Shown here: positions 16,696 to 58,964 of the stretch, piece after piece
How positions within the stretch are numbered: position 1 is the first letter of the stretch
How the letters are laid out: each line of letters opens with the position of its first letter
NCBI GenBank assembly: GCA_964407285.1
Contig: CAYOVG010000003.1
Span: 40-64,039, forward strand
Reading direction: 5' to 3'
Source: an uncultured Syntrophobacteraceae bacterium
Lineage (GTDB): Bacteria; Desulfobacterota; Syntrophobacteria; Syntrophobacterales; Syntrophobacteraceae
DNA: 64,000 bases
The notes under the pieces: generated by a model
What the model was told of the DNA's origin: nothing
The model's database searches: none
What the model saw: the letters and a program-made list of their open reading frames with translations, nothing else
Position numbers and translations under genes: made by a program

Positions 16696-16700
16696 GAGTA

Positions 16701-18509: not shown

Positions 18510-18512
18510 AGT

Positions 18513-22445: not shown

Positions 22446-22455
22446 GCCGAAGAGT

Positions 22456-24839: not shown

Positions 24840-25644
24840 GCTCCGCGGTTTGAAGCTGAAGCTGAGCATCCCGTGGCGGGGACTCAAGGCGACGGCCGCC
24901 TTTGTGGCCGCAATAGCCCTGGTGCTGGGGCTCAGCGCCGCGCTGGCCCACTCTTACTACGCCTTGGAAGACGCCCCGTGGCCGAGGGTGGAATCGATCG
25001 AGATAAAGGGGCTCAAGCGTGTGGACCGGCGCGAGGTGCTGAACGCCCTGGGGATTGCCAGGAACGCCAACGTCTTGACCCTTCGAATATCGCAACTGGC
25101 AGGGCGGGTGGAAGCCCTTTCTTGGGTGCGTTCGGCGGTGGTGAGGCTCGATTTCCCGTCGCGGATGATCGTTGAGGTTGTCGAGCGGGAACCGCTGGCC
25201 ATTGTGTACACGGATGCTTTCTACCTCATGGACGGCGAGGGGAAGCTCTTCCTGAAGGTCAATCCGGAGAGCCATGCGGGTTTGCTGCTGGTTACCGGGG
25301 TTGCGCGGCAGGAAATCCGGGAGGGGGGCGTTCTTTCGGAAGAACCTCTGGAGGCCGTGAAGGCGTTGCTCCTGGCCCTGGAGAAGTGCCAGAGCTGGTT
25401 GCCGTTGAGTCTTATTTCGCAGTGTCACTGGCAGAGGGAGGTCGGAGTCGTTCTCTATCCGAGCAGCAAGGTGATTCCCATTCAACTCGGAAAGAACGAT
25501 TTCGAACTGAAGCTGAGCCGGTTGCATAAGGTGATAGATGCTCTGATGAATCGCCAGTGGTGGGACCTGGTGACGCGCATCGATCTCGATTACAAGAGCA
25601 GAGCGTACATAAAGGGGAACTTCCCGATTCCCAAGGGGATATGA
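24781..25644 (+). CDS. ftsQ: Cell division protein FtsQ (POTRA domain)
   Basis: Bitopic protein: TM segment AAFVAAIALVLGLSAALA, then a POTRA-like IEIKGLKRVDRREVLNALGI ... VVERE. GTG start; the 59-nt overlap with murB suggests the true start may be later. Confidence 0.8.
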   Translation: MKAKENRYRHTRKSFKPGFKLRGLKLKLSIPWRGLKATAAFVAAIALVLGLSAALAHSYYALEDAPWPRVESIEIKGLKRVDRREVLNALGIARNANVLTLRISQLAGRVEALSWVRSAVVRLDFPSRMIVEVVEREPLAIVYTDAFYLMDGEGKLFLKVNPESHAGLLLVTGVARQEIREGGVLSEEPLEAVKALLLALEKCQSWLPLSLISQCHWQREVGVVLYPSSKVIPIQLGKNDFELKLSRLHKVIDALMNRQWWDLVTRIDLDYKSRAYIKGNFPIPKGI

Positions 25645-25702
25645 ATTTCGAGGTCTCATTCGACATCATTCAAGGAGGCGAGGGGGGCCAAGAGGGGGCG
25701 CG

Positions 25703-26938: not shown

Positions 26939-27019
26939 TTAAGGCGCTCGACCAGTTTCAGTTTTGGAATGCTCTTGGCAGTATGGGATCATCTCTTGAG
27001 AGAGAAGAGGGGCGGAAAA

Positions 27020-28249
27020 ATGTTGAAAGCGGAACCGGGTGGGGCAAAAATCAAGGTATTGGGAATTGGTGGCGGGGGCGGCAATGCCATCAACAACATG
27101 ATCAGCAGTGGGTTGGATGGTGTTGAGTTCATCGCGGCCAATACGGATTTCCAGGCGCTGGATCAGAACCTGGCTCCCATCAAGATCCAGTTGGGCGTCA
27201 ATCTGACCCGTGGGTTGGGGGCCGGGGGCAACCCGGAGATGGGTTCGAAGGCCACCCAGGAGAACATCGACAGCGTTCGTGAAGTGGTGGAAGGAAGCGA
27301 CCTGGTCTTCATCGCGACGGGCCTGGGCGGCGGAACGGGCACGGGCGGCGCGCCGATTGCGGCGCAGGTGTGCAAGGAGGTCGGGGCGCTCACGGTAGCG
27401 GTGGTGACCAAGCCTTTCGCGTTCGAGGGGCGGGCGCGGCAGCGCCGGGCGGAGGAGGGGCTCAAGGCGCTCCAGAACGTGGTGGACACCCTTATCGCGA
27501 TCCCCAACAACCGGTTGGTGACCATGGCCGACAAGCGGGCGACGCTGCTCGAGATGCTCAAGCGGGCGGACGACGTGCTGCTCGATGCCGTGCGGGGTAT
27601 TTCGGATATCATCGTCAAGCCGGGCCTCATCAACCTCGACTTCACCGATGTGCGCTCCGCGATGAACGAACGGGGTCTGGCCCTTATGGGAACGGGAGTC
27701 GGCAAGGGCGAAGGCCGTGCGGCGCAGGCGGCGCAGCAGGCCATCTCCAGTCCGCTCCTGGAAGATATTTCCATTCACGGAGCGCGGGCGGCCCTGATCA
27801 ACATCTGTGCCGGGCACGACCTGACAATGCACGAGTTCGAGGAGGCCTCCTCGATCATTCAGAAGGAAGTGGACGAGGATGCGGAGATCTTCATCGGCAC
27901 CACCATCGACCCGCACCTGGAGGACGAACTCCGGGTCACCGTCATTGCCACGGGCATCGGCAAGATGGAAAAGCAGCCCCAGCGGTCGGAGAGCGCGGCG
28001 GTGGTTCGTCCCGGCAGGCGTTCGAGGACCGAGGCGATTGTGCCCGACGTGGTGAACGACGACTACATCCGCATCCCGACGATTTACCGCAATCGCTCCG
28101 TCAGAGGGGAGAAGGACGTAGCGGCGGGGGCCCAGGAGGAGCCTCAGCAGCCGGTGAAGAAAAGGACCTTCCTGAGCCGTATTGCCGGAATTTCCGGGGA
28201 GGACCAGGATCTGAACATCCCGACCTTCATCCGGCGCCAGGCCGATTGA
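27020..28249 (+). CDS. ftsZ: Cell division GTPase FtsZ
   Basis: Motifs: GIGGGGGNAINNM, the tubulin signature GLGGGTGTGGAP, NDRL-type (IPNNRL), and the C-terminal peptide DLNIPTFIRRQAD. Likely start is ATG 27020 (MLKAEPGGAKIKV). Confidence 0.95.
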   Translation: MLKAEPGGAKIKVLGIGGGGGNAINNMISSGLDGVEFIAANTDFQALDQNLAPIKIQLGVNLTRGLGAGGNPEMGSKATQENIDSVREVVEGSDLVFIATGLGGGTGTGGAPIAAQVCKEVGALTVAVVTKPFAFEGRARQRRAEEGLKALQNVVDTLIAIPNNRLVTMADKRATLLEMLKRADDVLLDAVRGISDIIVKPGLINLDFTDVRSAMNERGLALMGTGVGKGEGRAAQAAQQAISSPLLEDISIHGARAALINICAGHDLTMHEFEEASSIIQKEVDEDAEIFIGTTIDPHLEDELRVTVIATGIGKMEKQPQRSESAAVVRPGRRSRTEAIVPDVVNDDYIRIPTIYRNRSVRGEKDVAAGAQEEPQQPVKKRTFLSRIAGISGEDQDLNIPTFIRRQAD

Positions 28250-39224: not shown

Positions 39225-39929
39225 TCAGCACCCGGGCATGTCGCATTCCTCCGGTCTTATGCCTGCCGCGCCCGCATACATTTCTCCTCGAACCAGAAAG
39301 TGGACATGCTCGGCGATGTTCGTCAGGTGGTCCCCTATGCGCTCCACGGACCGGGCGACGAAGATGAGGGAAGTATACGCCTCGATGCGACCGGGTTCCT
39401 GCTTCATGGAATCCCTCAACCGCCTCAGAAACTCCGCGTAGACTTCATCGATGTCTCTGTCGCGATGCCAGACCGCGACGGCCCGCTCGACGTCGAGTTC
39501 ATTGTACGCCTTCAGCACATCCCGAAGCATTTCCTGGGCGTATTTTGCCATGAGAACGATCATCTCGATGGAATCATCCGGCGAAACCCTGTTCAGGTCG
39601 TCTATATTTTTGGCGATATTGGATGCGTAGTCGGCGACCCGCTCCAGGTCGGTGGCGATCTTGAGGGAGGCGATAATACTCCGGAGGTCCACCGCCATGG
39701 GTTGCCGTAAGGCGAGCATCCTGATGGTGAGCGCATCGGCCTCATGCTCGAGAGCATTCACTTTCGCGTCGTTGCGTATGATCCTTTGAGCGAGGCTGCC
39801 GTCTCGCGAAGTGAGAGCTTCTACTGCGGAACCCAGTTGAGAGTTCACTTCCCTTCCCATGTTCAGAATAGTCCGCTGCAGCTTCCCCAATTCTTCATCG
39901 AAAGATCTTACGGTGTGACCATGCGACAT
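39225..39929 (-). CDS. phoU: Phosphate signalling regulator PhoU
   Basis: Two PhoU repeats: DLERVADYASNIAK and SVERIGDHLTNIAE. Confidence 0.9.
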   Translation of the reverse strand: MSHGHTVRSFDEELGKLQRTILNMGREVNSQLGSAVEALTSRDGSLAQRIIRNDAKVNALEHEADALTIRMLALRQPMAVDLRSIIASLKIATDLERVADYASNIAKNIDDLNRVSPDDSIEMIVLMAKYAQEMLRDVLKAYNELDVERAVAVWHRDRDIDEVYAEFLRRLRDSMKQEPGRIEAYTSLIFVARSVERIGDHLTNIAEHVHFLVRGEMYAGAAGIRPEECDMPGC

Positions 39930-39985
39930 CCTGCGCTCCTCATTGCAGTTCCGGCGGACGTAATCGTCCGATCCCCCTTTATCAG

Positions 39986-40860
39986 TTAATCATCGAGCGA
40001 ACAATTTGGGAGGCCTGCACCGCAACTTAGCCGACCCCAACCATGAGTTTTCTTCTTGGACCGCCTCTGTCCCTTGTACTGGTACTCCTGGGTCCGGGTG
40101 ACCGGTTCGCGCAACCAGATCCGTGTCTTACGCGACACCTGTACGAAGTGGATCATGCCCAGGTGAGATCCCACAGCAGCGGTGAAGTCCTCACTTTCCC
40201 CATGGATCGAATCGGCCAGTGCGTATTTGAAAGGAAAAACCAAGTGGAGACGCTCAAGCATCCGGCCGGTTCTAAATGGTTTCAACCACTTGCCCCATGG
40301 TAAGCGCCATTGACCCGCCCTAAGTTGCGTTGTAGGGATAAGCATCCAGGTATCCATCCGACTCCCCGATTTTCAATTTCCCTTGTCAGAGCGGTCAAAT
40401 ACTCCGCGTTGCCGATTGCTGCCCAGTCGATACCTGATGCCTGCCCGCCGAGCCGGTTCGGCATGAGCCACCATGATGGTACTGCCATTGCCGTCAAGAA
40501 AGGGGTGTCCGTGGGCCGGATATCCCATAACCTCACCCGGATGTTCTGTCGTGTACGCTTTGTCCGATCCGATTTTCAATCGGCGTACGAGGCTGCGCTC
40601 AAACTCAGCAAGAGCGCTGAACATGTGAAAGATGAGCAACCCCTGCGCGGTCGTCGTGTCTATTGCTTCCGTCAGACTCCGAAATCCTATCCCGCGCGCC
40701 CGCAAATCTTCCACCGTCTCAATCAACTGTTTGACCGAACGGGCAAGCCGGTCGGGCTTCCAGACCCGGATGTGATCGAGCACCGAGAGGACCTTTTCCT
40801 TGCGTCGGCGGGCTGGGCTGGGGGACGTGATGAAACCGATTTATCACTGGGTTGTAACAG
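39986..40860. mobile_element. Mobile-element debris between phoU and pstS: a truncated serine recombinase plus a possible integrase/transposase fragment
   Basis: See the pseudogene at 40373-40783. The ORF at 39986-40357 (-) contains EDFTAAVGSHLGMIHFVQVSRKTRIWL. This only loosely resembles the start of an rve/IS3-type catalytic core (FTA..PN.LW..DITYV), so that part of the call is weak. Confidence 0.45.
40373..40783 (-). pseudogene. Serine recombinase (resolvase/invertase family), 5'-truncated
   Basis: VWKPDRLARSVKQLIETVEDLRARGIGFRSLTEAIDTTTAQGLLIFHMFSALAEFERSLV matches the conserved middle of resolvase catalytic domains (VWKLDRLGRS...GIGFRSLTE.IDTTT..G.L.F....ALAEFER). The N-terminal catalytic Ser region is absent and the upstream frame shows no resolvase-like sequence. 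Confidence 0.65.
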
Positions 40861-40972
40861 TACTGAAATAAATCAAGAATTACAATTGGTTATTGAGTAA
40901 TTAACATAATGCAAACGAATATCAATGTATGCCGGTATGAGCTGTTCATTTCACGGAAAAGGAGAATAAGCA

Positions 40973-42022
40973 ATGAGGAAAGGTTTTGCCGGTTCGTCAA
41001 TTGCCGCAGTGCTGCTGCTCGTGATCTTTTTCTGTCCGGTGACGGTTCCAGCCGCGGACATCACGGGAGCGGGGGCCACGTTTCCTTATCCCCTCTATTC
41101 CAAGTGGGCGGAAGCCTACAAAGAGCAAACGGGTGTCGGATTGAATTACCAGTCCATCGGTTCCGGGGGCGGAATCAAGCAGATAGAGGCAGGGACCGTT
41201 GACTTCGGGGCTTCCGATATGCCCCTGAAATCCGAGGAACTCGAGCAGAAAGGCCTTATCCAGTTCCCGGCGGTGATCGGGGGTGTTGTGCCGGTGGTCA
41301 ACATTCCGGATGTCGATCCCGGCGAATTGCGGCTCACGGGTGATTTGCTGGCGAAAATCTATCTCGGCGACATAAAGAAATGGAATGATCCAGCCATTGG
41401 CGAATTGAACCCGGACGTAAAACTTCCCGACCTTCCGATTACGGTGGTTCACAGGTCCGACGGATCGGGCACGACCTTCATCTTCACGAACTACCTCGCA
41501 AAAGTCAGCGAAACCTGGAAAGACAAAGTCGGCACTAATGTCTCGGTCAACTGGCCCACCGGTGTGGGAGGGAAAGGAAACGAAGGGGTGGCCTCCTACG
41601 TCCAGCGGATCAAAGGCAGCATCGGGTATGTGGAATACGCCTACGCACAACAAAACAAAATGGCCTATGCCCTGCTGAAGAACCGGGAGGGCCGGTTCGT
41701 CAAGCCGGACGCCGAATCTTTCCAAACCGCGGCTGCGGGCGCCGACTGGGAAAAGGCGAAAGGGTACTACGAGATACTGACCAATGAACCGGGCAAGTCC
41801 AGTTGGCCGATTACGGGGGCGACTTTCATACTGATGCACAAGAAACCGCAAGATCCGGCGCGGGCCAGGCAGGTGCTGGACTTCTTCGATTGGGCGTATA
41901 AAAACGGAGACGATCTGGCGCTTGGTCTCGACTATATCCCGATGCCCGACAAAGTGGTCAACATGGTGGAGCAATCGTGGACCCAGGTCGAAGATGCAGG
42001 TGGGAATCCGGTTTGGAAGTGA
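40973..42022 (+). CDS. pstS: Phosphate ABC transporter substrate-binding protein PstS
   Basis: Signal peptide, then TGAGATFPYPLYSKWA, YQSIGSGGG, FGASD and HRSDGSGTTFIFTNYL. Confidence 0.92.
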   Translation: MRKGFAGSSIAAVLLLVIFFCPVTVPAADITGAGATFPYPLYSKWAEAYKEQTGVGLNYQSIGSGGGIKQIEAGTVDFGASDMPLKSEELEQKGLIQFPAVIGGVVPVVNIPDVDPGELRLTGDLLAKIYLGDIKKWNDPAIGELNPDVKLPDLPITVVHRSDGSGTTFIFTNYLAKVSETWKDKVGTNVSVNWPTGVGGKGNEGVASYVQRIKGSIGYVEYAYAQQNKMAYALLKNREGRFVKPDAESFQTAAAGADWEKAKGYYEILTNEPGKSSWPITGATFILMHKKPQDPARARQVLDFFDWAYKNGDDLALGLDYIPMPDKVVNMVEQSWTQVEDAGGNPVWK

Positions 42023-42075
42023 GTTGCGGGCTTCGCGTTGCGGGTTACGAGTTGCCGTTCTGAGAACTCGTAGAC
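42022..42075. repeat. Degenerate GTTGCGG-type repeat plus a 7-bp hairpin, immediately after the pstS stop
   Basis: gagttgcgggcttcgcgttgcgggttacgagttgccgttctgagaactcgt, with stem acgagtt/aactcgt. Related to the heptamer array at 16701-16731. Confidence 0.6.
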
Positions 42076-42295
42076 TGTTAACGTAAATCGCATTGCCGGT
42101 GCAGGGATCGAAGGACATACCGGAAGTGGAAAAACGGCAGGGCGGTGCTTCGCACTGCCGAATCGGGATATTCGACCCATGCAAGTCTATTGTTTCCGAC
42201 AAGGTTCCTTGTTCCTGCGATGGTATGAATCCATAGTCGCCGTACACCCGTGGCGCATCGTTGCTCGAAGATGCGCCACGGAAACGGCAATCGTA

Positions 42296-43330
42296 ATGGA
42301 AAAGAGGCGTGATTTGAACGACGGGGAAGAGACGATTAAATTCGATAGAGTAGACAGCAGAGAGGCGGTGTCGAGACGGGTTTCGGCGGCTCGCATCAGG
42401 CGGCAGGAAACAGTCGATCTGCTGTTCGGAAATACGACCAGGTTCTTCGCGTTCTTTGTTTTCCTGCTTCTGGCGGGCATAGTCGTTTCCTTAATTGTGG
42501 GGGCCCTTCCCGCCATTCGCAGGTTCGGTCTCGAGTTTCTGGTGAGCGCCACGTGGAACCCGGTTACGGAGGAATTCGGCGCTCTTGTTCCGATTGTAGG
42601 GACTTTGCTGACTTCAGTTATCGCGCTTCTCATCGGGGTGCCGGTAAGCTTCGGGATCGCCCTATTTCTGACTGAACTGTCCCCCGTATGGCTGAGGCGG
42701 CCTTTGGGAACGGCTATCGAGCTTCTGGCGGGCATTCCCAGCATCATTTACGGGATGTGGGGCCTGTTCGTCTTTGCGCCGATGTTCGCCGAATATGTGG
42801 AGCCTTGGATCATCGATAATTTGGGAGGACTGCCCCTGGTGGGCGCGCTGTTCCGGGGGCCGCCGATCGGGGTCGGCATCCTGACGGCGGGCATTATACT
42901 GGCAATCATGATCATTCCATTCATCGCTTCGGTAATGCGAGACGTTTTCGAGACCGTGCCGGCCCTTCTCAAGGAATCGGCATACGGGCTGGGCGCTACT
43001 ACCTGGGAGGTGGTATCGCGTATTGTTCTTCCCTACACGAAGGTGGGCGTTGTCGGGGGCATCATGCTCGGGCTGGGAAGGGCGTTGGGGGAAACGATGG
43101 CGGTCACGTTCGTGATCGGCAACGCTCACGAGTTGCACGCCTCGCTCCTTATGCCGGGTAACAGCATCGCTTCTACTCTGGCCAACGAGTTCACCGAGGC
43201 GGTCGGCAAGATCTATTCGTCCGCTCTCATCGAGTTGGGGCTCATACTTTTCTTCATCGCTTTTGTCGTTCTTTCACTGGCCAGGCTGATGCTGATGCGG
43301 ATGTCGCGCCGTGAAGGGAAACAGACCTGA
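42296..43330 (+). CDS. pstC: Phosphate ABC transporter permease PstC
   Basis: Multi-TM permease with the EAA-like loop ([20 protein letters not shown]). Likely start is ATG 42296 (MEKRRDL). Confidence 0.9.
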
Positions 43331-44189
43331 GGATCACCCTGTGATGATCTCACTCTACACGCGCCGCCGGCTTACAAATGCGATAAGCCTCACGGCCTCC
43401 GTCGTCACGATGCTGTTCGGCCTCTTTTGGCTGGCATGGATACTCTGGACGCTGTTCCGGCAAGGGATTCCGGGCTTGAGCCCGACGATCTTCACGCAGA
43501 TGACGCCGCCTCCGGGAAGCAGCGGGGGACTTCTGAACGCCATCGCCGGCAGTTTTGCGATGACGATGCTCGCATCGCTGCTGGGAACACCTGTAGGGAT
43601 TCTCGCCGGAATCTATCTCGGGGAGTACGGACACCGGGGTTGGCTCGCGCCCGTGACCCGGTTCATCAACGATATTCTCCTCAGCGCGCCGTCAATCATC
43701 ATAGGGTTGTTTATCTACGAGATATACGTCGTGCAGGTAGGGCACTTCTCAGGCCTGGCCGGTTCCTTTGCCCTCGGGCTCATCGTAATCCCCATTGTGG
43801 TGCGGACAACGGAAAACATGCTGAGGCTCGTGCCCAACAGCATGCGTGAAGCCGCCGCCGCGCTCGGCGCGCCGAAGTGGAAGGTGATCACCCTTGTGAC
43901 CCTGAAGGCCTCGCTCGCCGGAATCATGACCGGTATCCTGCTCGCCGTCGCCCGGATCAGCGGGGAGACCGCGCCGCTGCTCTTCACCGCACTGAACAAC
44001 CAGTTCTGGAGCGCGGACATCACTCAGCCCATGGCGAACCTTCCCGTGGTGATTTTTCAATTCGCCATGAGTCCCTACGAAGACTGGCACAGACTGGCGT
44101 GGGCCGGCGCTCTATTGATAACGCTGGCCGTTCTCGGCCTCAATATCCTCGCGCGTCTCCTCTTTCGAAAATCGAAAGCGTCGCGCTGA
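43311..44189 (+). CDS. pstA: Phosphate ABC transporter permease PstA
   Basis: Multi-TM permease with the EAA loop [20 protein letters not shown]. It follows pstC with a 20-nt overlap. Confidence 0.9.
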
Positions 44190-44212
44190 ACTTCCACTCA
44201 AATGCATGGAAC

Positions 44213-44986
44213 ATGATGAACGAACCGACATTCAAACCGAAAATCGTCATTCGGAACCTCGACTTTTTCTATGGTGAATTTCATGCGCTGAAAGACATCG
44301 GCTTCGAGGTCCCCGAGCACCGTGTGACCGCATTTATCGGCGCATCCGGGTGCGGCAAGTCGACTCTATTGCGTACGTTCAACAGGATCTACGAGTTGTA
44401 TCCCAGGCACAGAGCCACGGGTGAAATCCTCATGGACAACGTCAATATCCTCGATGGAAATCAAAACGTCAACGAGTTGAGGGCCCGGGTCGGCATGGTG
44501 TTCCAGCAGCCCATGCCCTTTCCGATGTCCATCTTCGACAATATCGCCTTCGGGGTGAAACTCTACGAAAACCTCAAGCGGGGTGAGATGGCGGAGCGGG
44601 TGGAATGGGCGCTTCGGAAGGCCGCTCTTTGGGACGAGGTGAAAGATGTGCTGAACCGGAGCGGCAACAGTCTCTCCGGAGGTCAGCAGCAACGCCTGTG
44701 CATCGCGCGGGTCATTGCCGTCAAACCCGAGGTCGTGCTCCTCGATGAACCCGCTTCCGCGCTGGACCCGATTTCCACGGCGCGGATCGAAGAACTCATC
44801 GATGAACTCAAGAACGACTACACTATCGTGATCGTGACTCATAACATGCAGCAGGCGGCCCGGGTTTCCGACTTCACGGCCTACATGTACCTCGGGGAAC
44901 TGATAGAGTTCGGGCCGACGGACTTGATATTCCACAGACCTCGGAAGAAAGCCACCGAAGATTATATTACGGGGAGATTCGGCTAG
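44213..44986 (+). CDS. pstB: Phosphate ABC transporter ATP-binding protein PstB
   Basis: Motifs: Walker [10 protein letters not shown], signature LSGGQQQR, Walker [13 protein letters not shown] and H-loop VTHNMQQA. Likely start is ATG 44213 ([10 protein letters not shown]). Confidence 0.95.
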
Positions 44987-44997
44987 CGCGCGACCGT

Positions 44998-45018
44998 GGA
45001 AGGGCGCGCGCCCTCTTC
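44998..45018 (+). terminator. GC-rich hairpin directly after pstB (possible terminator; no clear U-tract)
   Basis: ggaagggcgcgcgccctcttc forms a stem gaagggcgc/gcgccct(c)ttc with one bulge. It lies 12 nt after the pstB stop. Confidence 0.3.
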
Positions 45019-45019
45019 G

Positions 45020-45095
45020 ACAGGATTGACAGGCTCTGAATGTGCATTCGATCGATTCCCAATCCTGTTGATCCCGTACATCCTGTCAATCCTGT
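45020..45095. repeat. Perfect 14-bp inverted repeat (acaggattgacagg / cctgtcaatcctgt) around a 48-nt spacer
   Basis: Left arm 45020-45033, right arm 45082-45095, exact reverse complements. The spacer holds smaller palindromes (gaatgtgcattc, tcgatcga). The aatcctgt motif recurs at 61395-61430. Confidence 0.7.
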
Positions 45096-45203
45096 CTTAA
45101 GACCGGTACCCTTCAGATAATTCCATATGTTATAATAGATATGGACAGGAATCACGAATGGTGTTTTCGAGGCAAACGAATAATGCCCGGGGAGATGTGA
45201 GAC

Positions 45204-45614
45204 ATGAAAGCCGTAACAGTTTTATCCGCGGTGTTGGTTTTTGTTGTTCTTTGTGCGTCACCGGCCGTTGCCGGGCGAGGATGGGACCCGTCGCATCGAG
45301 GGGGCTATGTCGATTCCGGCGATGAGTTTGAAAGCGGTGTGGGTGAAGTCGCTCCGGGCGACCCGGATGCCTATCCGGTAGACGATTATCCGGGTGTCGC
45401 GCAGGATTACCCGGATGTAGTGCGAAACTATCCCGTTGTCGCCGGAGATTCCCTGAATACGACGGGTCCCATGCAGTTCACCACGGGCAATAGCCCGGCC
45501 ACAACGGGACCCATGCAATTCACGACGGGACCCTTGCGGTCGACCACCACTGACCGGCCCGCCGGCGGATTTCACCATGGAAGACGGTCCTTCGGCGAAC
45601 ACTTCAAACGTTAG
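45204..45614 (+). CDS. Secreted protein with internal short repeats
   Basis: Signal peptide MKAVTVLSAVLVFVVLCASPAVA; repeated TTGPMQFTTG units and DYP/NYP repeats. Confidence 0.5.
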   Translation: MKAVTVLSAVLVFVVLCASPAVAGRGWDPSHRGGYVDSGDEFESGVGEVAPGDPDAYPVDDYPGVAQDYPDVVRNYPVVAGDSLNTTGPMQFTTGNSPATTGPMQFTTGPLRSTTTDRPAGGFHHGRRSFGEHFKR

Positions 45615-46036
45615 GTTCTGCTGCGCACGGCGTGCACAATCCCGGTAAACCGTGCCGATAATCGGATGCTGCCGGATCTCTCCAATTTTTCGACCGCGGC
45701 CGGCGCACATTGCCGGCCGCTCAGCGGTATCTTCATTTTCTCGTGATTCATGCTTATAATATCCGGATAATACCCAAGGACGTGAAAGCCGATGCCCCCA
45801 ATTTGCGAGGAGCCGTAGAGCGTAGCCTTTTCAATGCAGGAGGAGCGCGGATGCCCTGGAAGGAATGTCGTTGACTTGCATTGTGCGGAATGCGACATGG
45901 GATTGCTGTTCGTGGTCGAAGCGTCCGATTCGAAGACCGGTCGGACCCTGAGGGCATTTGCCCAAAATGCACCCGATGGCAGGGAGAGACCGGCGGTGCG
46001 GAGGGGTTCAATACCGAATATGGAGGACGAACGAAA

Positions 46037-47200
46037 ATGTCGGAACGAGTCGGAGTGCCCTGTCTGAAGAGTGGAGAGGCAAATTCAGGCCATCCCGAGG
46101 GGACGCCCAATCCGGCTGATAGCTCCATCGATAGCCTGGCTTTCTGTAAATTCGTAATCAATAGCGTGCCGATCGGGATCATTTCCATGGATTCCGACTT
46201 CAGGATTACCGAATTCAACCATTGGGCCGGGAAAGTGACGGGCTATACCCCGGAACAAGCGATAGGCCATAGGTGTTGTGACATTTTGCAGAGTGAAATG
46301 TGCGAAGGTTCCTGTCCTTTGAAAACAGTTCTGAACCAGGCAAAAGCGACTGTATCCGGCAGGACGACCATACGCAACAGGGAGGGAATGCGCGTCCCCG
46401 TTCAGTTCGACGCTGCTGCTCTCTTTGGCGCCGAAGGCAGGCTCATCGGAGGAGTCGAAGCCTTCATGGATATAACGAAACTGATTGCCCTGGAGCGGGA
46501 GAGAGCGGACTTCATCGCGATGCTCGCTCATGACATGAGGTCTTCATTAACGGGGATCCACGGACTCGGGCTCAGGCTGTTGAGAAAGCTCGACAACCTG
46601 GATAAGGGACAGGAGAGGCAGTACATAGAGATCATCACCAGGGAGGCCGCAAAGCTGGAGTCATTGATCGATGACTTTCTCGATTATTCCCGGATTGAAG
46701 CGGGCAGGCTCAAGCTCAATCTCAGAGCGACTTCCCTCGATAAAGAACTCGAAGAGATTTTTGACACATACAAGCTCAAGGCGGCCCAGAGAGGCATCGT
46801 GCTCGATCTGCAGATAGAAGATATTCTGCCGGTTGTAGAGGCTGATACCAACAGGCTGCGCAGGGTCTTTACGAATCTCTTGGATAATGCCGTCAAGTTT
46901 TCGAGAGAGGAAGGGGTTGTCACGATCACCGCCCAGGAGAAGGATCGGGAGGTCGTGGTGATGATAACCGATGAGGGCATCGGAATAGATCCCGAGGATC
47001 TCCCCCATATTTTCGACGTCTTCCATAGGGGAAAGACGACGGGCGGGGTAGAGGGACACGGACTGGGACTGGCTACTGTCAAGGCCATTGTGGAAGGGCA
47101 TGGCGGGCGTATCGTGGTCACCAGTCAGCCCAATAAGGGCTCGACGTTTACCATATTTCTTCCCAAACGGGAAGAGGGGCCGCCCCGCTTCGATTCCTGA
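46037..47200 (+). CDS. Cytoplasmic PAS-domain sensor histidine kinase (orphan; no response regulator adjacent)
   Basis: GGAGGA lies 9 nt upstream of ATG 46037. It has a PAS (PIGIISMDSDFRITEFNHWAGKVTGYTPEQAIG) with a Cys cluster, the H-box AMLAHDMRSSLTG, the N-box NLLDNAVKF, and the G-boxes DEGIGI / GHGLGLATV. Confidence 0.85.
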   Translation: MSERVGVPCLKSGEANSGHPEGTPNPADSSIDSLAFCKFVINSVPIGIISMDSDFRITEFNHWAGKVTGYTPEQAIGHRCCDILQSEMCEGSCPLKTVLNQAKATVSGRTTIRNREGMRVPVQFDAAALFGAEGRLIGGVEAFMDITKLIALERERADFIAMLAHDMRSSLTGIHGLGLRLLRKLDNLDKGQERQYIEIITREAAKLESLIDDFLDYSRIEAGRLKLNLRATSLDKELEEIFDTYKLKAAQRGIVLDLQIEDILPVVEADTNRLRRVFTNLLDNAVKFSREEGVVTITAQEKDREVVVMITDEGIGIDPEDLPHIFDVFHRGKTTGGVEGHGLGLATVKAIVEGHGGRIVVTSQPNKGSTFTIFLPKREEGPPRFDS

Positions 47201-47266: not shown

Positions 47267-47539
47267 CTATTCCAAATCCGGAAGCTCCTCCCGAGGAATG
47301 AGGAGCCTTATCGTGCGAGGCTGATTCGGCACTCTTGAAATAAAGCCCTTTTGCTCGAGCTGCAGCACCATGCTGTGAACAGATGGAGGCGTGGTCTTGA
47401 AATATCTCTGCATGTCCGCTTCCGCCGGTGGAATACCGTTCAATTTGGTGTAGTAGTGGATGAACGCCAGGTATTGGCCCTGTTTGCGCGTGTATGGAGA
47501 TCTTTGCTTTCGGTTCGCGTCGTGAATATCCGTCTTCAT
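47267..47539 (-). CDS. Small winged-helix DNA-binding protein resembling the LexA N-terminal domain; last gene of the RAMP operon
   Basis: 90 aa. YTRKQGQYLAFIHYYTKLNGIPPAEADMQRYFKTTPPSVHSMVLQLEQKGFISR parallels the LexA DNA-binding domain pattern (LT.RQ..vL.FI..y....G.pPt..EIa..lg..S.s.V..HL.aLe.KGyI.R). It starts 15 nt after the Cas6-like stop. Confidence 0.65.
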   Translation of the reverse strand: MKTDIHDANRKQRSPYTRKQGQYLAFIHYYTKLNGIPPAEADMQRYFKTTPPSVHSMVLQLEQKGFISRVPNQPRTIRLLIPREELPDLE

Positions 47540-47554: not shown

Positions 47555-48619
47555 TCAGCTCAGCGAAAACGTTCCGCATCCGAGGTGGGTGTACCTCCCG
47601 ATGTGGAGGATGGATGCGAGTTCCAGCCACGGGATGATCTGCGGAGCAATGGGGGCGAAGACCCCTTTGCCCGCCCATCGGCCCGGAGTGCCGGTCTGAT
47701 TGGCCTCCATGTCCTTGAAGAGCAACGGGGTCCGGACGGCCAGGTCCATGGCCTCCCGGAGGGACGCTCTGCCCTCCTCGTCGAGAATGTTCCACAGGGC
47801 GTCGGCCGCCTTTTTGCCTCGCGCAAGGAAGACCAGGCGCCTCTCCACGGCTTCCAGGATGGCTTCCAGCGAGAAATCGGGGATTTCCCGGCCATCATAT
47901 CCTCGCTGCCTATGCAGAGGCGGGCCGGAATCCGCGTCCGCCTGTTCTCCCGAAATACCGGGTTGGGCCTCGAATTCAAAGGACGTGAGCCACGACAGCC
48001 GCTGCGGAGGGGCCGCCGAACCGGCCTCGAACGCCAACCCCCGCGCCCACTGCGATGTATCGGCCCGGTAACCCAGGTCCAACCGGCCGTCGCTCACCAC
48101 CGGCTCCCAGCATGGCCCTCGCGCCGCATAGACGGCATGAACGTCGAATCGGCCCCATATCCCGCCCGAGCGGCTCCACCGGGAATCCGTCGTGAAGCTC
48201 GCTTCCTCCATGGCGGGCAGCAGGGTTTCGAGGAAGAATCCATGGTCCGCCGCGTCTCCCATCACCTTGAGTTCCCAGAAGACCAGTTCTCCGAACCCGT
48301 AGGTCCGCTTTCCGGGATAGGGAAAGAGCACGACGTCGGCGGGCCACGATACGTCGGGAAATTCCCGCTTCATGCGCGGCGATCCCTTTTTTCCCTTCTT
48401 CGAATGATCGGGATTGGGGTCATCGAAATACGCGTCCCAGGGGGCGAGGGCCTTCTTCCAGCGTCCGGACTCCCTGGACGGGAGGCGGTCCGCGATGATC
48501 GAGCCGAGGACCCTCGACAGTTCGACCGAGAAGTTCTCCGGCAAGAACACGTAGGCGCCGTTTATCCTCCACACGATGAGGTAGCGGATGAGCCTAATCT
48601 TCCTGAATGAGGCGTGCAT
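47555..48619 (-). CDS. Cas6-like RAMP protein (resembles the Cas6 family formerly called DUF2276)
   Basis: 354 aa. The C-terminal glycine-rich loop LELASILHIGRYTHLGCGTFSLS is the Cas6/RAMP signature (HiGk.tsfGlG). The N-terminal half has FGELVFWELKVMGDAADHGFFLETLLPAMEEA and GGIWGRFDVHAV, matching the first ferredoxin-like fold of that family. It overlaps the upstream gene by 26 nt. Confidence 0.7.
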   Translation of the reverse strand: MHASFRKIRLIRYLIVWRINGAYVFLPENFSVELSRVLGSIIADRLPSRESGRWKKALAPWDAYFDDPNPDHSKKGKKGSPRMKREFPDVSWPADVVLFPYPGKRTYGFGELVFWELKVMGDAADHGFFLETLLPAMEEASFTTDSRWSRSGGIWGRFDVHAVYAARGPCWEPVVSDGRLDLGYRADTSQWARGLAFEAGSAAPPQRLSWLTSFEFEAQPGISGEQADADSGPPLHRQRGYDGREIPDFSLEAILEAVERRLVFLARGKKAADALWNILDEEGRASLREAMDLAVRTPLLFKDMEANQTGTPGRWAGKGVFAPIAPQIIPWLELASILHIGRYTHLGCGTFSLS

Positions 48620-49478
48620 AATCGAGAAGCTCGTGAAATAGTTTGATCCGGTTCTTGGGCCATTCCCGCACCTTCCAGGCCGTCAGCATGTCCCTGGTCC
48701 GCTGCTCGAGCCTTCCCAGAAAGCGGCCCCAGTAGAACTGGGTCTGCTTCTTATCCTTCAGGTTGAGCAGGTCGAACAGCTCCTGCTGCTCGTCGGGATG
48801 GAGCAGAGCCCGGAAGATCTCCGCCGTCTCCAGGAGACCGAGGAAGTCGGACACCTCGAAGCTGAGCATTCCCTTCTGATCGCGGGTACGGGGGTCCAGC
48901 AACTGGTACGGACTCGAAAAAAAACGTACGTGCATGCTCCCCATCGGGATGTACAGGTCCCGATGGACGGCCAGGGTGAGCACATCGCCCATGCACGTTC
49001 TCGTGCCGGCCCCCATGGTCGGGAAGATCTGCAAAATCCCCCGCAACTCCAGCCCGTAGTAGACGATGAGGTCCTGCAGCCACACTCTCACTTCCCGGCG
49101 GTGCATCATGACGAGAAAATGGTTGGCGTCGTGAATATAGACACCCTGGAGCCGCCCGCCCCGGTCCCCGCCGCCCCACTGGAGCACCTCCTCGGGCAAC
49201 TGGGTGACGAACCCCCAGATGAGCGCCGCGTTGCGGGAGATATGGGAGAGATTGGCCGTCCGCTGAAGAATCTGCCCGCACTCCCTGCAGTACAGCTCCC
49301 CCTCCCCGGTGCGGGGATAGATCCAGCACCGCGCGCACGGCCCCAGGGTAGCGGAATGGGGCGCTCCGATGTCGCCGGCGGCGGCCGGAAAATCGGGGTT
49401 TTCCGACAGGCGCCTCATTGTGGCCAGGAGTTCCGTACCCGTCCGGCAGCGGCGTAGCCAATCAAATCTGCTGAGCAT
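48594..49478 (-). CDS. Zinc-ribbon protein of unknown function, middle gene of the RAMP operon
   Basis: 294 aa. CARCWIYPRTGEGELYCRECG (CxxC-x12-CxxC) sits at aa 48-68. The rest is mixed alpha/beta-looking with no motif I recognise. It is translationally coupled on both sides (17-nt and 26-nt overlaps). Confidence 0.65.
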   Translation of the reverse strand: MLSRFDWLRRCRTGTELLATMRRLSENPDFPAAAGDIGAPHSATLGPCARCWIYPRTGEGELYCRECGQILQRTANLSHISRNAALIWGFVTQLPEEVLQWGGGDRGGRLQGVYIHDANHFLVMMHRREVRVWLQDLIVYYGLELRGILQIFPTMGAGTRTCMGDVLTLAVHRDLYIPMGSMHVRFFSSPYQLLDPRTRDQKGMLSFEVSDFLGLLETAEIFRALLHPDEQQELFDLLNLKDKKQTQFYWGRFLGRLEQRTRDMLTAWKVREWPKNRIKLFHELLDYARLIQED

Positions 49479-52400
49479 CCAACGCCTTCCGCAGTTCCTG
49501 GTAGTGTTGTATCACTTTTGGATCGATCCATTCCGCCGGATTCAGGGGCATCCGCCCCCGGGCGTCGTCGGACTTCCCGTCCCCGTTGCCGCCCGCATAC
49601 CGGCTCTCCCAGTCCGTGAGAAAACTTTCCGGAAGCAGGCTCAGCCGCAGGCTCCCGAACCCGAGGTAGCGACCCTTGCCCATCTTGTGCGCCAGCTCCG
49701 GTTCCAGCACCGTACACCACAAGAGCCTCTGCAGTTCGTCCTTCTCGAGGTTCCAGAACCGGATCGAGAATCGGCACCGGGAGCCGGGTAGGATCGCCTT
49801 GACGTAATCGGCTTTGGGGGTATCCGGGTTGAAGCCGTCCAGTTTCTCCACGCAAGGGGCAAGCGGGGCGTGCGGGAAGAGCCTCCACTTCCCGGCGATG
49901 CGCAGCATCTCGGCGGGTTGTTTCGAAGCCTCCTTCCACCGGCCGTCGATGTAGCGCCACGCCCCGTAGGGGTACGGCACTTTGAACCATGCGGCGTCAA
50001 CCTCCTCGAACGGGGCGAAATCGAAGGAAATCCTTCCCATGATCGCCTGGTTCGGACCGTTTCCCACCCAGCCGAACAGGCTGTCCGCGGGGGTGAGCCG
50101 GCCGATGTCCGTGCTGGGTTTGCCGGAGTCGGTTGCGATGGTGTAGATGTGCCGGATCATTCCCTTGATGCTCTTGGCGGGCAGAGCGTAGAGCCTGGAG
50201 GGACCCCGCAGGGCCGCTTCCGGCGGAGCCATGGCGAAGTGGTCCCATCCGTTGATGCCCCCTGCCGACGCATCATCGAGAATGTGCGCCTGCGACGGCT
50301 CTCCGCTTGCCTTGACGCTGACCAGCGTCAGGACTCGGCCCTCGACCCGCAGCAACCCGCAGTAGCCCCCGAAAGCCTTGTGGGATATGAAACCCTGTCC
50401 GGTCCTCGGCGGATTTCGCGCGCCTCTCTTGCCTTCCGGAGCGATGGGGGTCCGGAGAAACGCATCCCGGGCGGCCTCCCCCTCGACGCTGAAACCGTTC
50501 CATATGCCGTCGCGCGTGTGGACCGGGCTTGCGAAAATCCTCCTGCCGACCGCATCCGCGTCCGCGGGCGCGCAGGTCAACCACCGAATTGAGTCGATCC
50601 GGCTCTTGACCCAGCCGAAGCCGCATGTCTTTTCTCCGCCGAGAGGGATGTCCCCCTTGCGGAAGTCGTCGAGCAGGTGCGCCAGGATGGAAAACGCTTC
50701 CATGTCCTTTTCGCCCAGGTCCTGCATGTCGAGCCGCAGGTTGAACGAGAGGTCCTTGCCGAAGGCGAAGAGGTAGTCCGCTTTGGCTTCCTCGATGGGA
50801 GCGCCCGTCGCGGGGTCCATTCTCACCCCGTCCATGGCGCAGGCCGATTGAGGCGGGATCGTGGAACCTGATAGATATGCGTCGGAGAAGAAAACCATCC
50901 CCTGCCGTCCCTGCTCGCCGAAGAGACGGTCCAAAACGAACGCCGTTTTCGACGATTCCCCCCACAGGGTCTTGAGCAGTTGGGACGCGCGCTTCCTGAA
51001 CGCGCCTTTAATGGTGCTTCCCGGTATGTACACCTCCCACTTTCCCCGCCCCTCCCTGGAGGGCGCCCAGGAAAGCATCCTCATGAATACGGTGTCGAAA
51101 GGCTTGCCGTACTTCCTGGAAATCTCGCGGTTGGCTACCCCGCCGGCGCGGAAGTCGGTGTTGTACGGCTGGGACAGCTCCTCGCGGGTATGGTCGCGAT
51201 ATCCCGAAAGGAGCGCTATGATGTTCTTGTCGTTCACGATGCTTTTGTTCAGGTTCCTGCTGTTGAGCATGTGGCGGTACTGCACCCGCCGGTGGGATTC
51301 GATGAATTCCCGCCAGGTCGAGGAACGTACGCCCTCGGGTGTCAAGTCCGGGTTGAGCCATTGCCGCTCCTGCATCTTTCCCTTGAGGAGCATGTTCTTG
51401 ATGCGCAGGTGCTCTTCCCGGATGGCGATCTCCTCATCGATCCAGCTATCGCTTCGGATCAGCTTGATCTGCCTGTCCACCTGCTGGTAGAGGTTCGGAA
51501 GGACCCTCGCGCACTCGCGCGACAGAAGGTCCGTGAAGGCGGATTCGTCCTGGACGGAGCCCGCCAGCCGGTCCGCCACGTCCTTTTCGAACCCCATCGG
51601 ACCGGCGACCTTCGCCCAGGTTTCCCTGTCGAACTGCTTGCCCTTCTTTCGCTCGTGCACCACGACGTCGAGCACGCGTTTGGCCATGTTGGCTTTCCCG
51701 CCGAGAGCCTCCTTGACGGCCGCCTCGACGGCCTCCTTGTTCGGAAACGGGCGGTCCGTGAGCGGCTTTACCTGGTCCAGCACCTTCTGGGACAGAGGGA
51801 ACTTGCCCTTCCCGAGTTTCCCCACGGCGGCGGACGGGAGCATCCAGGACACCTGTTCCATGCTGGACTGCTCCATCAGCCAGGCGGCCAGTACTCTCGG
51901 AAGGAATTCGGCCAGCTTCTTCTTCCAGTTGTCCGGGCTGAGGATCGGTCCCCCTATGGTGGATTCCAGCCGCTTGCGGATCGGCTGCGGGATGCTCCTC
52001 ATGGCTTCCAGGAGTTGACGGCCTTCGATGGCGGCGAAGGCCGGTTCGTTCGGGTCGATTTTTCCCCACGGCCACCCCACGAGGACGGGGTTTTCCAGGT
52101 TGAAGGAGAGGTCGATGGCGAGGTGGTTCGCGCGAGGCGAGACGGAAGGCGCCGTATCCCGAGGCTTGAAGGGGAGTTCGATTTCCAGGCGGCAACGTCC
52201 CAATCCCTTGCTCTTCCCGGCCCCGAACCAGAAACGGCCCTCCTTCAGTTCCTGCAATGCAAAGTAGAGCCTGGCCTCGTTTTCGTCCTTCTTGAGGAGA
52301 GGATCGCTCACCGTCATGGAAAAATCGAAGACCGAATTCCGGAAAAGGGTTTCCATCTTGTAGTTCGCGTTGGCTTCCGCCGCCCAGCGGTCCTCGTTGA

Positions 52401-52719
52401 GCTTGATGCCCATGCGGATGTCGAAGAGGTGGTCCCGCGAGTAGCTCTTCTCCTCGAGGCTGCACTGGACCTTCGCGACCAGCCCTTCCGGCATGGGGGA
52501 ACCGTAGAGCCGCAGCCACAACTGGTTGAGCAATCCGATGTTCTTTCCGGTTCGCGACTTGCCGATGAACGCGTCCATGAGGGATTCGGCGGTCCCCCCT
52601 ATTTCTCCGGCGAGGGACACGAGGCGCTGCGTTCCGTCTCCGTCTCTCGTGAAAAGGGTCTTCCGCGCATTTCCCCGGTAGATCGGGGATTCGGCCAGGA
52701 GCTTACCTTTGAGAATCAT
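49462..52719 (-). CDS. Fused multi-RAMP protein: three Cas7-like modules with a large insertion (gRAMP/Cas7-11-like architecture, 1085 aa)
   Basis: AAGGAGG lies 6 nt upstream of ATG 52719. Module 1 (aa 1-185): ESPIYRGNARKTLFTRDGDG, IRMGIKLNEDRWAAEANANYKMETLF, G-loop FGAGKSKGLGRCRL. Module 2 is split: AIDLSFNLENPVLVG (aa ~200-216), then WEVYIPGSTIKGAFRKR (561-577), LDRLFGEQG, GVRMDPATGAP, G-loop IPLGGEKTCGFGWV. Module 3 (aa ~785-1030): RVLTLVSVKASGE, YALPAKSIKGMIRH, ADSLFGWVG, GRISFDFA, RFSIRFWNLEKDELQRLLW, G-loop HKMGKGRYLGFGSLRL. Confidence 0.8.
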   Translation of the reverse strand: MILKGKLLAESPIYRGNARKTLFTRDGDGTQRLVSLAGEIGGTAESLMDAFIGKSRTGKNIGLLNQLWLRLYGSPMPEGLVAKVQCSLEEKSYSRDHLFDIRMGIKLNEDRWAAEANANYKMETLFRNSVFDFSMTVSDPLLKKDENEARLYFALQELKEGRFWFGAGKSKGLGRCRLEIELPFKPRDTAPSVSPRANHLAIDLSFNLENPVLVGWPWGKIDPNEPAFAAIEGRQLLEAMRSIPQPIRKRLESTIGGPILSPDNWKKKLAEFLPRVLAAWLMEQSSMEQVSWMLPSAAVGKLGKGKFPLSQKVLDQVKPLTDRPFPNKEAVEAAVKEALGGKANMAKRVLDVVVHERKKGKQFDRETWAKVAGPMGFEKDVADRLAGSVQDESAFTDLLSRECARVLPNLYQQVDRQIKLIRSDSWIDEEIAIREEHLRIKNMLLKGKMQERQWLNPDLTPEGVRSSTWREFIESHRRVQYRHMLNSRNLNKSIVNDKNIIALLSGYRDHTREELSQPYNTDFRAGGVANREISRKYGKPFDTVFMRMLSWAPSREGRGKWEVYIPGSTIKGAFRKRASQLLKTLWGESSKTAFVLDRLFGEQGRQGMVFFSDAYLSGSTIPPQSACAMDGVRMDPATGAPIEEAKADYLFAFGKDLSFNLRLDMQDLGEKDMEAFSILAHLLDDFRKGDIPLGGEKTCGFGWVKSRIDSIRWLTCAPADADAVGRRIFASPVHTRDGIWNGFSVEGEAARDAFLRTPIAPEGKRGARNPPRTGQGFISHKAFGGYCGLLRVEGRVLTLVSVKASGEPSQAHILDDASAGGINGWDHFAMAPPEAALRGPSRLYALPAKSIKGMIRHIYTIATDSGKPSTDIGRLTPADSLFGWVGNGPNQAIMGRISFDFAPFEEVDAAWFKVPYPYGAWRYIDGRWKEASKQPAEMLRIAGKWRLFPHAPLAPCVEKLDGFNPDTPKADYVKAILPGSRCRFSIRFWNLEKDELQRLLWCTVLEPELAHKMGKGRYLGFGSLRLSLLPESFLTDWESRYAGGNGDGKSDDARGRMPLNPAEWIDPKVIQHYQELRKALDAQQI

Positions 52720-58106: not shown

Positions 58107-58964
58107 ATGTCCGGGTCCCGTTTGCGCCTTATCGAGGGTAGGGCAACCTCGGATGCATTCCGGAGGGGGATCGAGCGGGTTCGATGGGATGAAGGGATAG
58201 GAGAAAAGCGCTGTCCCGACGAATCGCTCCCCGATAGGGGACCGTCGCCGTTCAAGAGGCTTTGCCTGCGCCGGGCCGATTCATGCACATGCGCCATTGC
58301 TTTTAATGCCGTTGGAGCGGGGGAACTCACGGTCCGTGAGCTTTCACCCGAGAAGCCCGAGCACTTCCGCATACCCCGCAACGTGGACAGGGTGCTGGGG
58401 CGGGAGGTGTCCATAGCGCGGCGCATGGAGCAACTCCTGCCTGCGAAACTGGGCATTTTGGAGCGCAAAACCCGGCTCGTCAACCTGCACGGGGAAGGGG
58501 GAATCGGCAAGACCCGCCTGGCCCAGGCCGTATGCGACCGGCTGGAGGAGTACCGGCGCTTCGGGGGCGGAATATACGAGGTCGATTGCGAGGAGGTCTC
58601 CGACAGTCTCCAACTGGCCCTCGCTGTCTTCAAGGCCATGAGCGTGGAAGAAGGGCAAAGGGTTGCAGACCCCGTGCGGGCGCTTCCCGCTTTCATGGAG
58701 GATCTTTCCCGACAAAAGCGGGACCTGCTCCTCTTTCTGGATAACGTCGATGAACTCTTTGCGCCGCGCGCCGGTTTCCAGGGCGTTCACCCGGCCGTCC
58801 TTCTGAAAACGATCTTTTCGCAATGCGACTCCGTCCGTATCCTCACCACCTGCCGCACCAGGGTGGGATTGTCGGACTTCGGGTCCAATATGGAGGTAGA
58901 TCCTCAGCGGGTATCCGGATGCGTTCCTACGAAACTTCATGGTGGCCCACAACAATCTGATTGA
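58107..58964 (+). pseudogene. STAND/NB-ARC-type P-loop NTPase, frameshifted and truncated
   Basis: Motifs: Walker A LHGEGGIGKTRLAQAV, Walker B LLFLDNVDE, and ILTTCRTR. At about 58905 the expected motif continues only in another frame (LSGYPDAFLRNF...). That frame runs straight into a short helical tail ending at 59052, so most of the usual C-terminal repeat region is missing. Confidence 0.6.

Follow-up and report, generated by a model that had tools for sequence, protein, structure and literature searches.

Type III-I CRISPR-Cas systems were defined only in late 2025, when Makarova et al. (Nat Microbiol 2025; PMC12669027) introduced the subtype and the name Cas7-11i. As published, Cas7-11i comprises three Cas7 domains fused together, along with a (putative) Cas11 domain, with a conserved Asp in each Cas7, and it has neither the N-terminal Cas7 nor the INS insertion of Cas7-11e from type III-E. 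Its partner, a Cas10 that has diverged extremely, no longer has the cyclase domain (PMC12669027). Here, we describe a 1085-amino-acid (aa) protein encoded in a 64-kb stretch of DNA from an uncultured Syntrophobacteraceae bacterium (contig CAYOVG010000003.1); the whole stretch of 64,000 nucleotides (nt) is called the window. A sequence-only reading of the window had proposed that this protein is built of three Cas7-like modules, the second of which is interrupted by a long insertion. We estimate a probability of roughly 0.8 that it is the product of cas7-11i, the predicted single-polypeptide backbone of a type III-I effector, co-transcribed with cas10i and cas6i.

Cas7-11e, or gRAMP (DiCas7-11, SbCas7-11; PDB 7WAH, 7X7A, 7ZOL), is likewise a single polypeptide whose fused Cas7 domains hold the CRISPR RNA (crRNA). 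Module 2 of the window protein aligns with its Cas7.3, and the C-terminal part of module 3 with its Cas7.4. Cas7-11e has four Cas7 domains, whereas the window protein has three, with no INS and no Cas7.1-type processing domain; a separate Cas6i is encoded instead. The Cas11 of Cas7-11e lies between Cas7.1 and Cas7.2, but the helical domain of the window protein lies inside the equivalent of Cas7.3. The partner of Cas7-11e is the protease Csx29 (TPR-CHAT), in contrast to Cas10i in the window, where no CHAT gene is conserved nearby. In the III-Dv system of Synechocystis (PDB 8S9T), Cas7-2x and Cas7-insertion are separate subunits alongside Cas5, a full Cas10, Csx19 and another subunit with a fused Cas11, whereas in the window system everything is in one chain. 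Modules 1 and 2 are collinear with Cas7-2x, module 3 matches chain 8s9t_E, and the loop between beta1 and alpha1, which is short in Cas7-2x.2 of III-Dv, has about 325 extra residues in the window protein. III-D2 Cas7x3 (PDB 9WXH; PMC13294483) is also a three-Cas7 fusion that works with Cas10. Compared to the reference Cas7-11i of Desulfonema magnum (WP_207677910), nothing essential differs: the length is within about 10 aa, the gene order is the same, and both have three Cas7 domains and a helical domain. The window copy is unnamed in its source record, and a LexA-like winged helix-turn-helix open reading frame (ORF) follows the gene trio.

The ORF proposed by the sequence-only reading was confirmed, with all nine quoted motifs at the residues given: AIDLSFNLENPVLVG at aa 201-215, WEVYIPGSTIKGAFRKR at aa 561-577, YALPAKSIKGMIRH at aa 844-857, HILDDAS at aa 812-818, ADSLFGWVG at aa 878-886, GRISFDFA at aa 895-902, and the glycine-rich loops at aa 166-176, 694-703 and 1014-1023. 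For module 1 and the insertion, the nucleotide coordinates given were right as well. The ORF starts with ATG, and a ribosome-binding site (RBS), AAGGAGG, is found 6 nt upstream. The NCBIfam hidden Markov model (HMM) NF049957 (type III-I CRISPR-associated gRAMP effector Cas7-11i) matched the protein with 1774.2 bits (E = 0; curated cut-off 800 bits) from end to end, aa 1-1085 against profile positions 1-1076 of 1076. With the type III-E model NF041225, the score was only 60.4 bits (cut-off 700), all of it from the last Cas7. The nearest named relative is the Cas7-11i of Desulforhabdus amnigena, with 73% identity; identity to the D. magnum reference locus (L045) is 59%. Relatives were found at 184 loci among GTDB species representatives, and the best 80 of these are full length with 54-71% identity, mostly from Chloroflexota and Thermodesulfobacteriota, D. 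magnum included. The window protein starts directly with beta1 of module 1 and its module 3 has about 245 aa, leaving no extra N-terminal Cas7 and no large INS, and its length compares with about 1430-1760 aa for the Cas7-11e relatives retrieved. By these matches, which lie far outside chance, the protein is an ordinary, typical member of the catalogued Cas7-11i family, the predicted single-protein RNA-guided effectors of type III-I. Its architecture has already been published and has a curated HMM, and the domain map of the sequence-only reading was largely a re-derivation of it. The parts of the gene are as follows, with their basis in brackets; AF2 is AlphaFold2, pLDDT its predicted local distance difference test score.

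49462..52719, reverse strand: cas7-11i ORF, 1085 aa plus stop codon (ORF list, translation, NF049957 match, upstream RBS).
52165..52719, reverse strand: Cas7 module 1, aa 1-185 (match to the first Cas7 of relative P0177, conservation of D26/D28).
52057..52134, reverse strand: first strand of module 2 with a P-h-h-h-G-W-x-W-G motif, aa 196-221 (AF2 strand, invariant residues).
51451..52056, reverse strand: insertion, N-terminal alpha/beta subdomain, aa 222-423 (AF2; missing from relatives with 130-160-aa inserts).
51079..51450, reverse strand: insertion, conserved helical core and return arm, aa 424-547 (shared with distant relatives, invariant residues).
50572..51078, reverse strand: rest of module 2, aa 548-716 (Pfam RAMPs, 55 bits against a cut-off of 22.1; module-2 profile).
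50368..50571, reverse strand: connector and variable linker, aa 717-784 (column entropy, pLDDT).
49630..50367, reverse strand: Cas7 module 3, aa 785-1030, TIGR03986-like (TIGR03986 at 92 bits, PDB matches, D826).
49465..49629, reverse strand: C-terminal extension, aa 1031-1085 (short helices and strands in AF2 at pLDDT 78-92; within the family HMM).

Two further genes follow on the same strand, cas10i and cas6i, and complete the canonical effector trio of type III-I:

48594..49478, reverse strand: cas10i, 294 aa (NF049958, 414 bits against a cut-off of 175).
47555..48619, reverse strand: cas6i, 354 aa (NF049959, 275 bits against a cut-off of 160).

The start of cas10i overlaps the end of cas7-11i by 17 nt, and the second overlap, of cas6i with its neighbour, is 26 nt. 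The order cas7-11i-cas10i-cas6i recurs in related loci, with cas10i in 83 and cas6i in 78 of 86, amid unrelated housekeeping neighbours.

The claim that the protein contains three Cas7/RAMP modules was borne out. Pfam RAMPs matched it in three stretches, and modules 1 and 3 taken alone fell just under the cut-off (17 bits for module 1 against 22.1). In the AF2 model, the RNA recognition motif (RRM) topology occurs three times, consistent with Cas7, and confidence is low exactly at the beta1-alpha1 loops and the thumb hairpins, as is expected for a Cas7 free of RNA. A Foldseek search of the PDB placed Cas7-11e/gRAMP first (E 2e-15), followed by the III-Dv chains 8s9t_E and 8s9t_D and by Cas7 of SsoCsm. 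The glycine-rich loop said to end each module is real and largely invariant in all three. Comparison of the modules with each other by hhalign was weak (modules 1 and 2, E 0.003; modules 2 and 3, E 0.07; modules 1 and 3, at the glycine-rich loop only), and tells little since the modules are too diverged from one another. Taken together, these data show that the protein is made up of three fused Cas7 (RAMP/RRM) domains.

Module 1 begins with beta1 at aa 2-9, followed by D26 and D28 in the loop, a degenerate alpha1 motif (LAGEIGGTAESL), a thumb at aa 94-124 and its glycine-rich loop. Residues 2-180 align with the first Cas7 of the two-Cas7 relative P0177 (E 2.7e-15), pairing RDxDG and ISGTSIGGALR of the latter with RDGDG and LAGEIGGTAES of the window protein. 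Module 2 has its YIPGSTIKG helix (IPGST at aa 565), a thumb at aa 619-655 and its own glycine-rich loop, and a module-2 profile matched solved structures of Cas7-2x (8s9t_D, E 9e-22), III-D2 Cas7x3 (9wxh_D, E 1.2e-14), Cas7.3 of Cas7-11e (about 1e-14) and Csm3 (3e-6). The PDB matches of module 3 are Cas7.4 of Cas7-11e and the III-Dv chain 8s9t_E. Between modules 2 and 3, aa 717-784 have the highest column entropy of the protein (1.54), and pLDDT falls to 49-62 at aa 761-780. Collinear sequence matches thus indicate that the two Cas7 domains of III-D-type Cas7-2x proteins have their counterparts in modules 1 and 2, and the profile matches indicate that module 3 corresponds to the TIGR03986 "Cas7-insertion"/Cas7.4 type, minus the big insertion.

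The catalytic loop of Cas7 is the loop between beta1 and alpha1 (PMC11995262), and the sequence-only reading had placed the split of module 2 at this position. The order of secondary structure, conservation and the spacing in relatives support this indirectly. AF2 predicts a strand at aa 198-207 (pLDDT about 80-90), and the next Cas7-type element is a short strand with the IPGST helix at aa 561-585. N198, L200, P211, V214, W216, W218 and G219 are invariant; the strand, with the P211-V214-G-W216-x-W218-G219 that follows it, has the classic pattern of a RAMP first strand. Divergent relatives all have this motif ahead of the insertion, whatever the length of the insert. In canonical two-Cas7 relatives, an Asp-containing loop of 20-30 residues comes after the equivalent first strand, and IPG(S/T)S comes next. 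The distance from the motif to IPGST is therefore about 20-30 aa in those proteins, 130-232 aa in the divergent relatives and 348 aa in the window protein, P0123 and P0124. Among the divergent relatives, the return (Y-D-x-x-F-x-R ... IPGST) comes after 130-161 aa in P0131, P0132, P0134, P0137 and P0141, 134-142 aa in the two-Cas7 proteins P0158 and P0161, 200 aa in P0145 and 232 aa in P0133. The best reading of these data is that module 2 is split in its beta1-alpha1 loop, about 10 residues past its first strand, and that the chain returns to it about 20 residues before the IPGST helix.

Between these points lies an insertion of about 325 aa. Modelled alone by AF2, it reached pLDDT 81 and was mostly helical, in agreement with the earlier guess, with two short strands (aa 286-294 and 354-361). 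The helices of the core are at aa 392-445, 466-475 and 487-515, and the return arm is of low confidence. D522, R524, D542 and R547 in the core and return arm are invariant. The insertion is not of low complexity; it is folded with confidence and conserved, with 12% of its columns invariant and a mean column entropy of 1.09 compared to 0.69-0.97 in the Cas7 modules. It is net basic (55 K+R against 44 D+E). The description of the insertion as rich in Lys, Glu, Arg and Leu was only partly right: K (8.0% in aa 220-555 against 6.0% in the rest), R (8.9 against 7.3%) and E (7.7 against 5.9%) are mildly enriched, by about 1.6-2.0 points, but Leu is not (9.5 against 10.1%).

Comparison with relatives shows that the insertion has two parts. 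Distant relatives with about 38-39% identity (P0131, P0132, P0134, P0137 and P0141) align only from aa 424-474 of the window protein onward, and aa 222-423 are missing from the relatives of 811-996 aa and about 590 aa that have inserts of 130-160 aa. These shorter proteins include P0131, P0132, P0134 and P0137 (811-890 aa) as well as P0158 and P0161 (about 590 aa), with about 31-39% identity. Thus, a core at aa 424-547 is common to a wider clade with inserts of 130-232 aa, and aa 222-423 form an extra N-terminal subdomain, for which no Pfam, PDB-sequence or Foldseek match was found. At locus L088 (7948-10099), a two-Cas7 protein has 134 aa inserted at this site, and the homologue of module 3 is encoded by a separate gene that comes after it. 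This unfused arrangement, an apparent pre-fusion form, indicates that the insert is older than the fusion. At L087, similarity of the following gene (its first 99 aa) to Cas10i reaches only E 0.1.

The conservation of the acidic residues was counted over 82 distinct sequences, comprising the window protein and translations of the loci retrieved, with the following results (all on the reverse strand).

D26, nt 52642-52644: Asp in 82 of 82, as predicted; positional counterpart of the active D33 of III-Dv Cas7-2x.1.
D28: Asp in 81 of 82, also as predicted.
D542, nt 51094-51096: Asp in 82 of 82, invariant also in relatives at 28-50% identity; 23 residues before IPGST, at the counterpart position of the active D246 of III-Dv Cas7-2x.2 and of D654 of DiCas7-11.
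D815, nt 50272-50277 together with D816: Asp in 31 of 82; not conserved.
D816: Asp in 42 and Glu in 13 of 82; partly conserved.
D826, nt 50242-50244: Asp in 79 and Glu in 3 of 82, in a G-W-D-(F/H)-F motif.

The active aspartates of III-Dv Cas7-2x, D33 and D246, have been aligned with D429 and D654 of Cas7-11e (bioRxiv 10.1101/2022.06.13.496011). D542 is, by alignment, the invariant Asp of module 2, and it had been missed by the sequence-only reading. That reading had named D815/D816, in HILDDAS, as the candidate acidic loop of module 3; the alignment does not bear this out, and the conserved acid of module 3 is D826 instead. All divergent relatives retain the GWDF motif with D826, as does the unfused gene of L088, and the equivalent residue in Cas7-11e relatives is D, K, R or G. 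In the AF2 model, D26, D542 and D826 all lie within the loop between beta1 and alpha1.

Several results weigh against reading this locus as a working III-I effector with a small-subunit-like insertion in the split module 2. There is no CRISPR array in the window, and none was found in about 1.05 Mb of flanking sequence at the 86 related loci (L001-L086), the D. magnum reference locus included; at 27 of the 86, the sequence reaches 5 kb or more upstream and 7 kb or more downstream of the cas7-11i stop. The sampled III-I modules are without an array within about 10 kb. No experimental work on type III-I was found in the literature searched. The solved counterparts of module 3, III-Dv Cas7-insertion and Cas7.4 of III-E, are catalytically inactive (bioRxiv 10.1101/2022.06.13.496011). 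The sequence and fold comparisons given below offer no homology support for a small-subunit role of the insertion. Also, splicing aa 196-222 to aa 548-716 did not lengthen the Pfam RAMPs match (54.5 bits, compared to 55.1). The missing arrays, together with the absence of adaptation genes and of any other cas gene among the window ORFs scanned, could mean that the trio has been orphaned or is decaying, a remnant that does not serve in CRISPR. We consider this very improbable: the ORFs are intact and translationally coupled, identity of 54-73% extends over the full length across several phyla with the catalytic-type residues invariant, and Cas6i is kept in nearly all loci, suggesting that crRNA processing is still needed. 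The splicing result bears on a different alternative, in which module 2 is unsplit, aa 198-215 are a linker strand or part of the insertion, the helical domain lies between domains, and the first strand is aa 550-553. A spliced family HMM, with the strand joined directly to aa 556-715 (or 536-715), ran unbroken from beta1 to beta4 in three of 10 canonical two-Cas7 relatives, with gains of 2-7 bits; in the other seven, the alignment began at IPGS and left out the strand. This alternative is improbable, though less so than a remnant, since aa 550-553 are a strand of merely four residues at the place of the hairpin that precedes IPGS in canonical relatives, after a separate and longer beta1. Moreover, aa 198-219, with the pattern described above, are among the most conserved residues of the protein and stand at a fixed position before every insert.

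What the insertion itself is can be weighed by fold, position and history. The proposal that it is an embedded small subunit agrees with the "putative Cas11 domain" of the family-defining paper, whose AlphaFold3 model (interface predicted template modelling score, ipTM, 0.75) was read as Cas11-like (PMC12669027), but none of our tests found similarity to Cas11. Pfam, including the Csm2 and Cmr5 families, gave nothing at E < 0.1; an insertion profile against all PDB sequences gave nothing relevant, with no solved Cas11 or Cas7-11e; hhalign against an alignment of five Cas7-11e relatives gave a probability below 1%; and Foldseek gave no match at E <= 0.001 and no Csm2, Cmr5 or Cas11 chain in the top 50. 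What speaks for the term "small-subunit-like" is therefore position. Since the catalytic loop is turned towards the target strand, working like a small subunit is plausible, whereas being Cas11 is unproven. That the insertion is a true Cas11 homologue, from a small-subunit gene captured and fused as in Cas7-11e, would explain the extra domain and fits its helical, basic character. The best Foldseek match, and the sole CRISPR protein among the matches, is chain 7zol_B, the Cas7-11e of D. magnum (E 0.43, probability 0.66), with the aligned stretch unspecified. We regard this origin as possible but doubtful. The insertion has two parts and about 2.5 times the size of Cas11. With modules 1 and 2 being the equivalents of Cas7.2 and Cas7.3 in Cas7-11e, it is also placed inside a domain, one Cas7 beyond the Cas11 of that protein. 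That site, in a loop of the Cas7-2x-type unit's second Cas7, is one that simple fusion in operon order could not reach, which disfavours a simple gene fusion, and lengths of 130-348 aa among relatives resemble loop accretion. With about the same tentative standing, the insertion may instead be a stepwise outgrowth of the catalytic loop of the second Cas7, replacing a small subunit by convergence. With arrays consistently missing from its neighbourhood, III-I would then be a minimal RNA-targeting module dependent on crRNA in trans, its small subunit being built in and non-homologous. On this account, a helical core of about 100-130 aa, also seen in unfused two-Cas7 proteins, may have come first and the subdomain of about 200 aa later, and binding of the target or of Cas10i to the insertion could gate cleavage at the D542 site. 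Slightly less probable still, the insertion may not be a small-subunit analogue at all, but a lineage-specific platform that docks Cas10i, substitutes for the Cas5/5'-tag cap, or regulates the catalytic loop of site 2. The lack of any fold match would suit such a platform, as would a system with no Cas5 and a Cas10i reduced to 294 aa. The invariant D542 sits on the return arm, so movements of the insertion could gate the active site, and aa 222-423 are present in the full-length Cas7-11i proteins examined, proteins that always co-occur with Cas10i. However, solved Cas7 filaments have their beta1-alpha1 loops turned towards the target strand, where small subunits lie, making a role at the target strand the simplest expectation, and the published AlphaFold3 model also speaks against a platform.

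If the protein is the backbone of a III-I effector, Cas6i would cut the pre-crRNA, as in established type III biology, and with no array nearby the crRNAs would have to come from arrays elsewhere in the genome. Cas7-11i would wrap the crRNA, with Cas10i at the 5'-tag end and the thumbs flipping every sixth base. Complementary RNA would be bound along the Cas7 filament, and the loop-derived helical domain, acting as a built-in small subunit, could lie over the target strand. D26 and D542, possibly also D826, would cut the target at 6-nt intervals; this third site is uncertain because of its inactive solved counterparts. Since Cas10i has no cyclase domain, signalling by cyclic oligoadenylate (cOA) is not expected. 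As no III-I experiments were found, RNA cleavage and the roles of D26, D542 and D826 are what we infer from related systems.

With 1085 aa, Cas7-11i reaches about two-thirds of the size of Cas7-11e, which makes it a candidate compact programmable RNA-targeting protein. D26, D542 and D826, rather than D815/D816, are the targets for mutagenesis. The helical domain could not be swapped out like the interdomain Cas11 of Cas7-11e, since it is inserted within a domain, in the catalytic loop. Judging by natural relatives, aa 222-423 may be dispensable. There is also a hint that what has been called "Cas11" in III-I may have grown out of a loop and not come from the capture of a small subunit.

A k-mer scan flagged repeats at two of the related loci, L045 (5912-6641) and L086 (1-256 and 15629-16357). 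On checking, these were tandem repeats with periods of 56, 66 and 67 nt and identical "spacers"; because whole units are repeated, they are not arrays.

Some features of the partner proteins were also seen. Cas10i had no PDB sequence match and only weak, insignificant zinc-finger/zinc-ribbon matches at aa 48-82, a region that may retain a Cas10-type zinc knuckle. The III-I Cas6 model (207 positions) covers only aa 5-216 of the 354-aa Cas6i; aa 249-350 have a weak match to Pfam CRISPR_Cas6 (E 0.003), possibly an extra or duplicated RRM half.

The trio lies between a gene for a PhoR-like histidine kinase and pstSCAB-phoU on one side and an MFS transporter gene on the other, with the dcw cluster further left. 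Positions 13332-28249 (forward strand) and 39225-47200 of the window hold chromosomal core genes, including dcw genes (rsmH, ftsI, murE, murF and others), phoU, pstS, pstC, pstB and the PhoR-like kinase gene. The cas genes are therefore a small insertion among housekeeping genes. Signals of a mobile island were looked for, and there was no adjacent tRNA and no compositional break (guanine plus cytosine 60-64% compared to 59%). No informative promoter or terminator match was found. Directly downstream of cas6i, a 90-aa ORF (47267-47539, reverse strand) has a LexA-type winged-helix N-terminus (TIGR00498, E 2.9e-10, under the cut-off). It was considered as a conserved fourth gene but is present in none of the 86 related loci and, therefore, is probably outside the system.

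Genes for TPR, peptidase C11 and CHAT proteins, recalling Csx29 of III-E, were seen 5-8 kb from the trio, the CHAT genes at 6-8 kb, in one Anaerolineae and one KSB1 genome (L004, 1-5301; L005, 19008-23225). With CHAT genes near the trio in two sampled genomes only and none in the window, a TPR-CHAT association as in III-E was rejected as coincidence. About 5.4 kb upstream of cas7-11i, a 285-aa ORF (58107-58964, forward strand) encodes a NACHT/AAA-type NTPase domain (Pfam NACHT, E 3e-9) and may be a fragment of a STAND-type defence gene.

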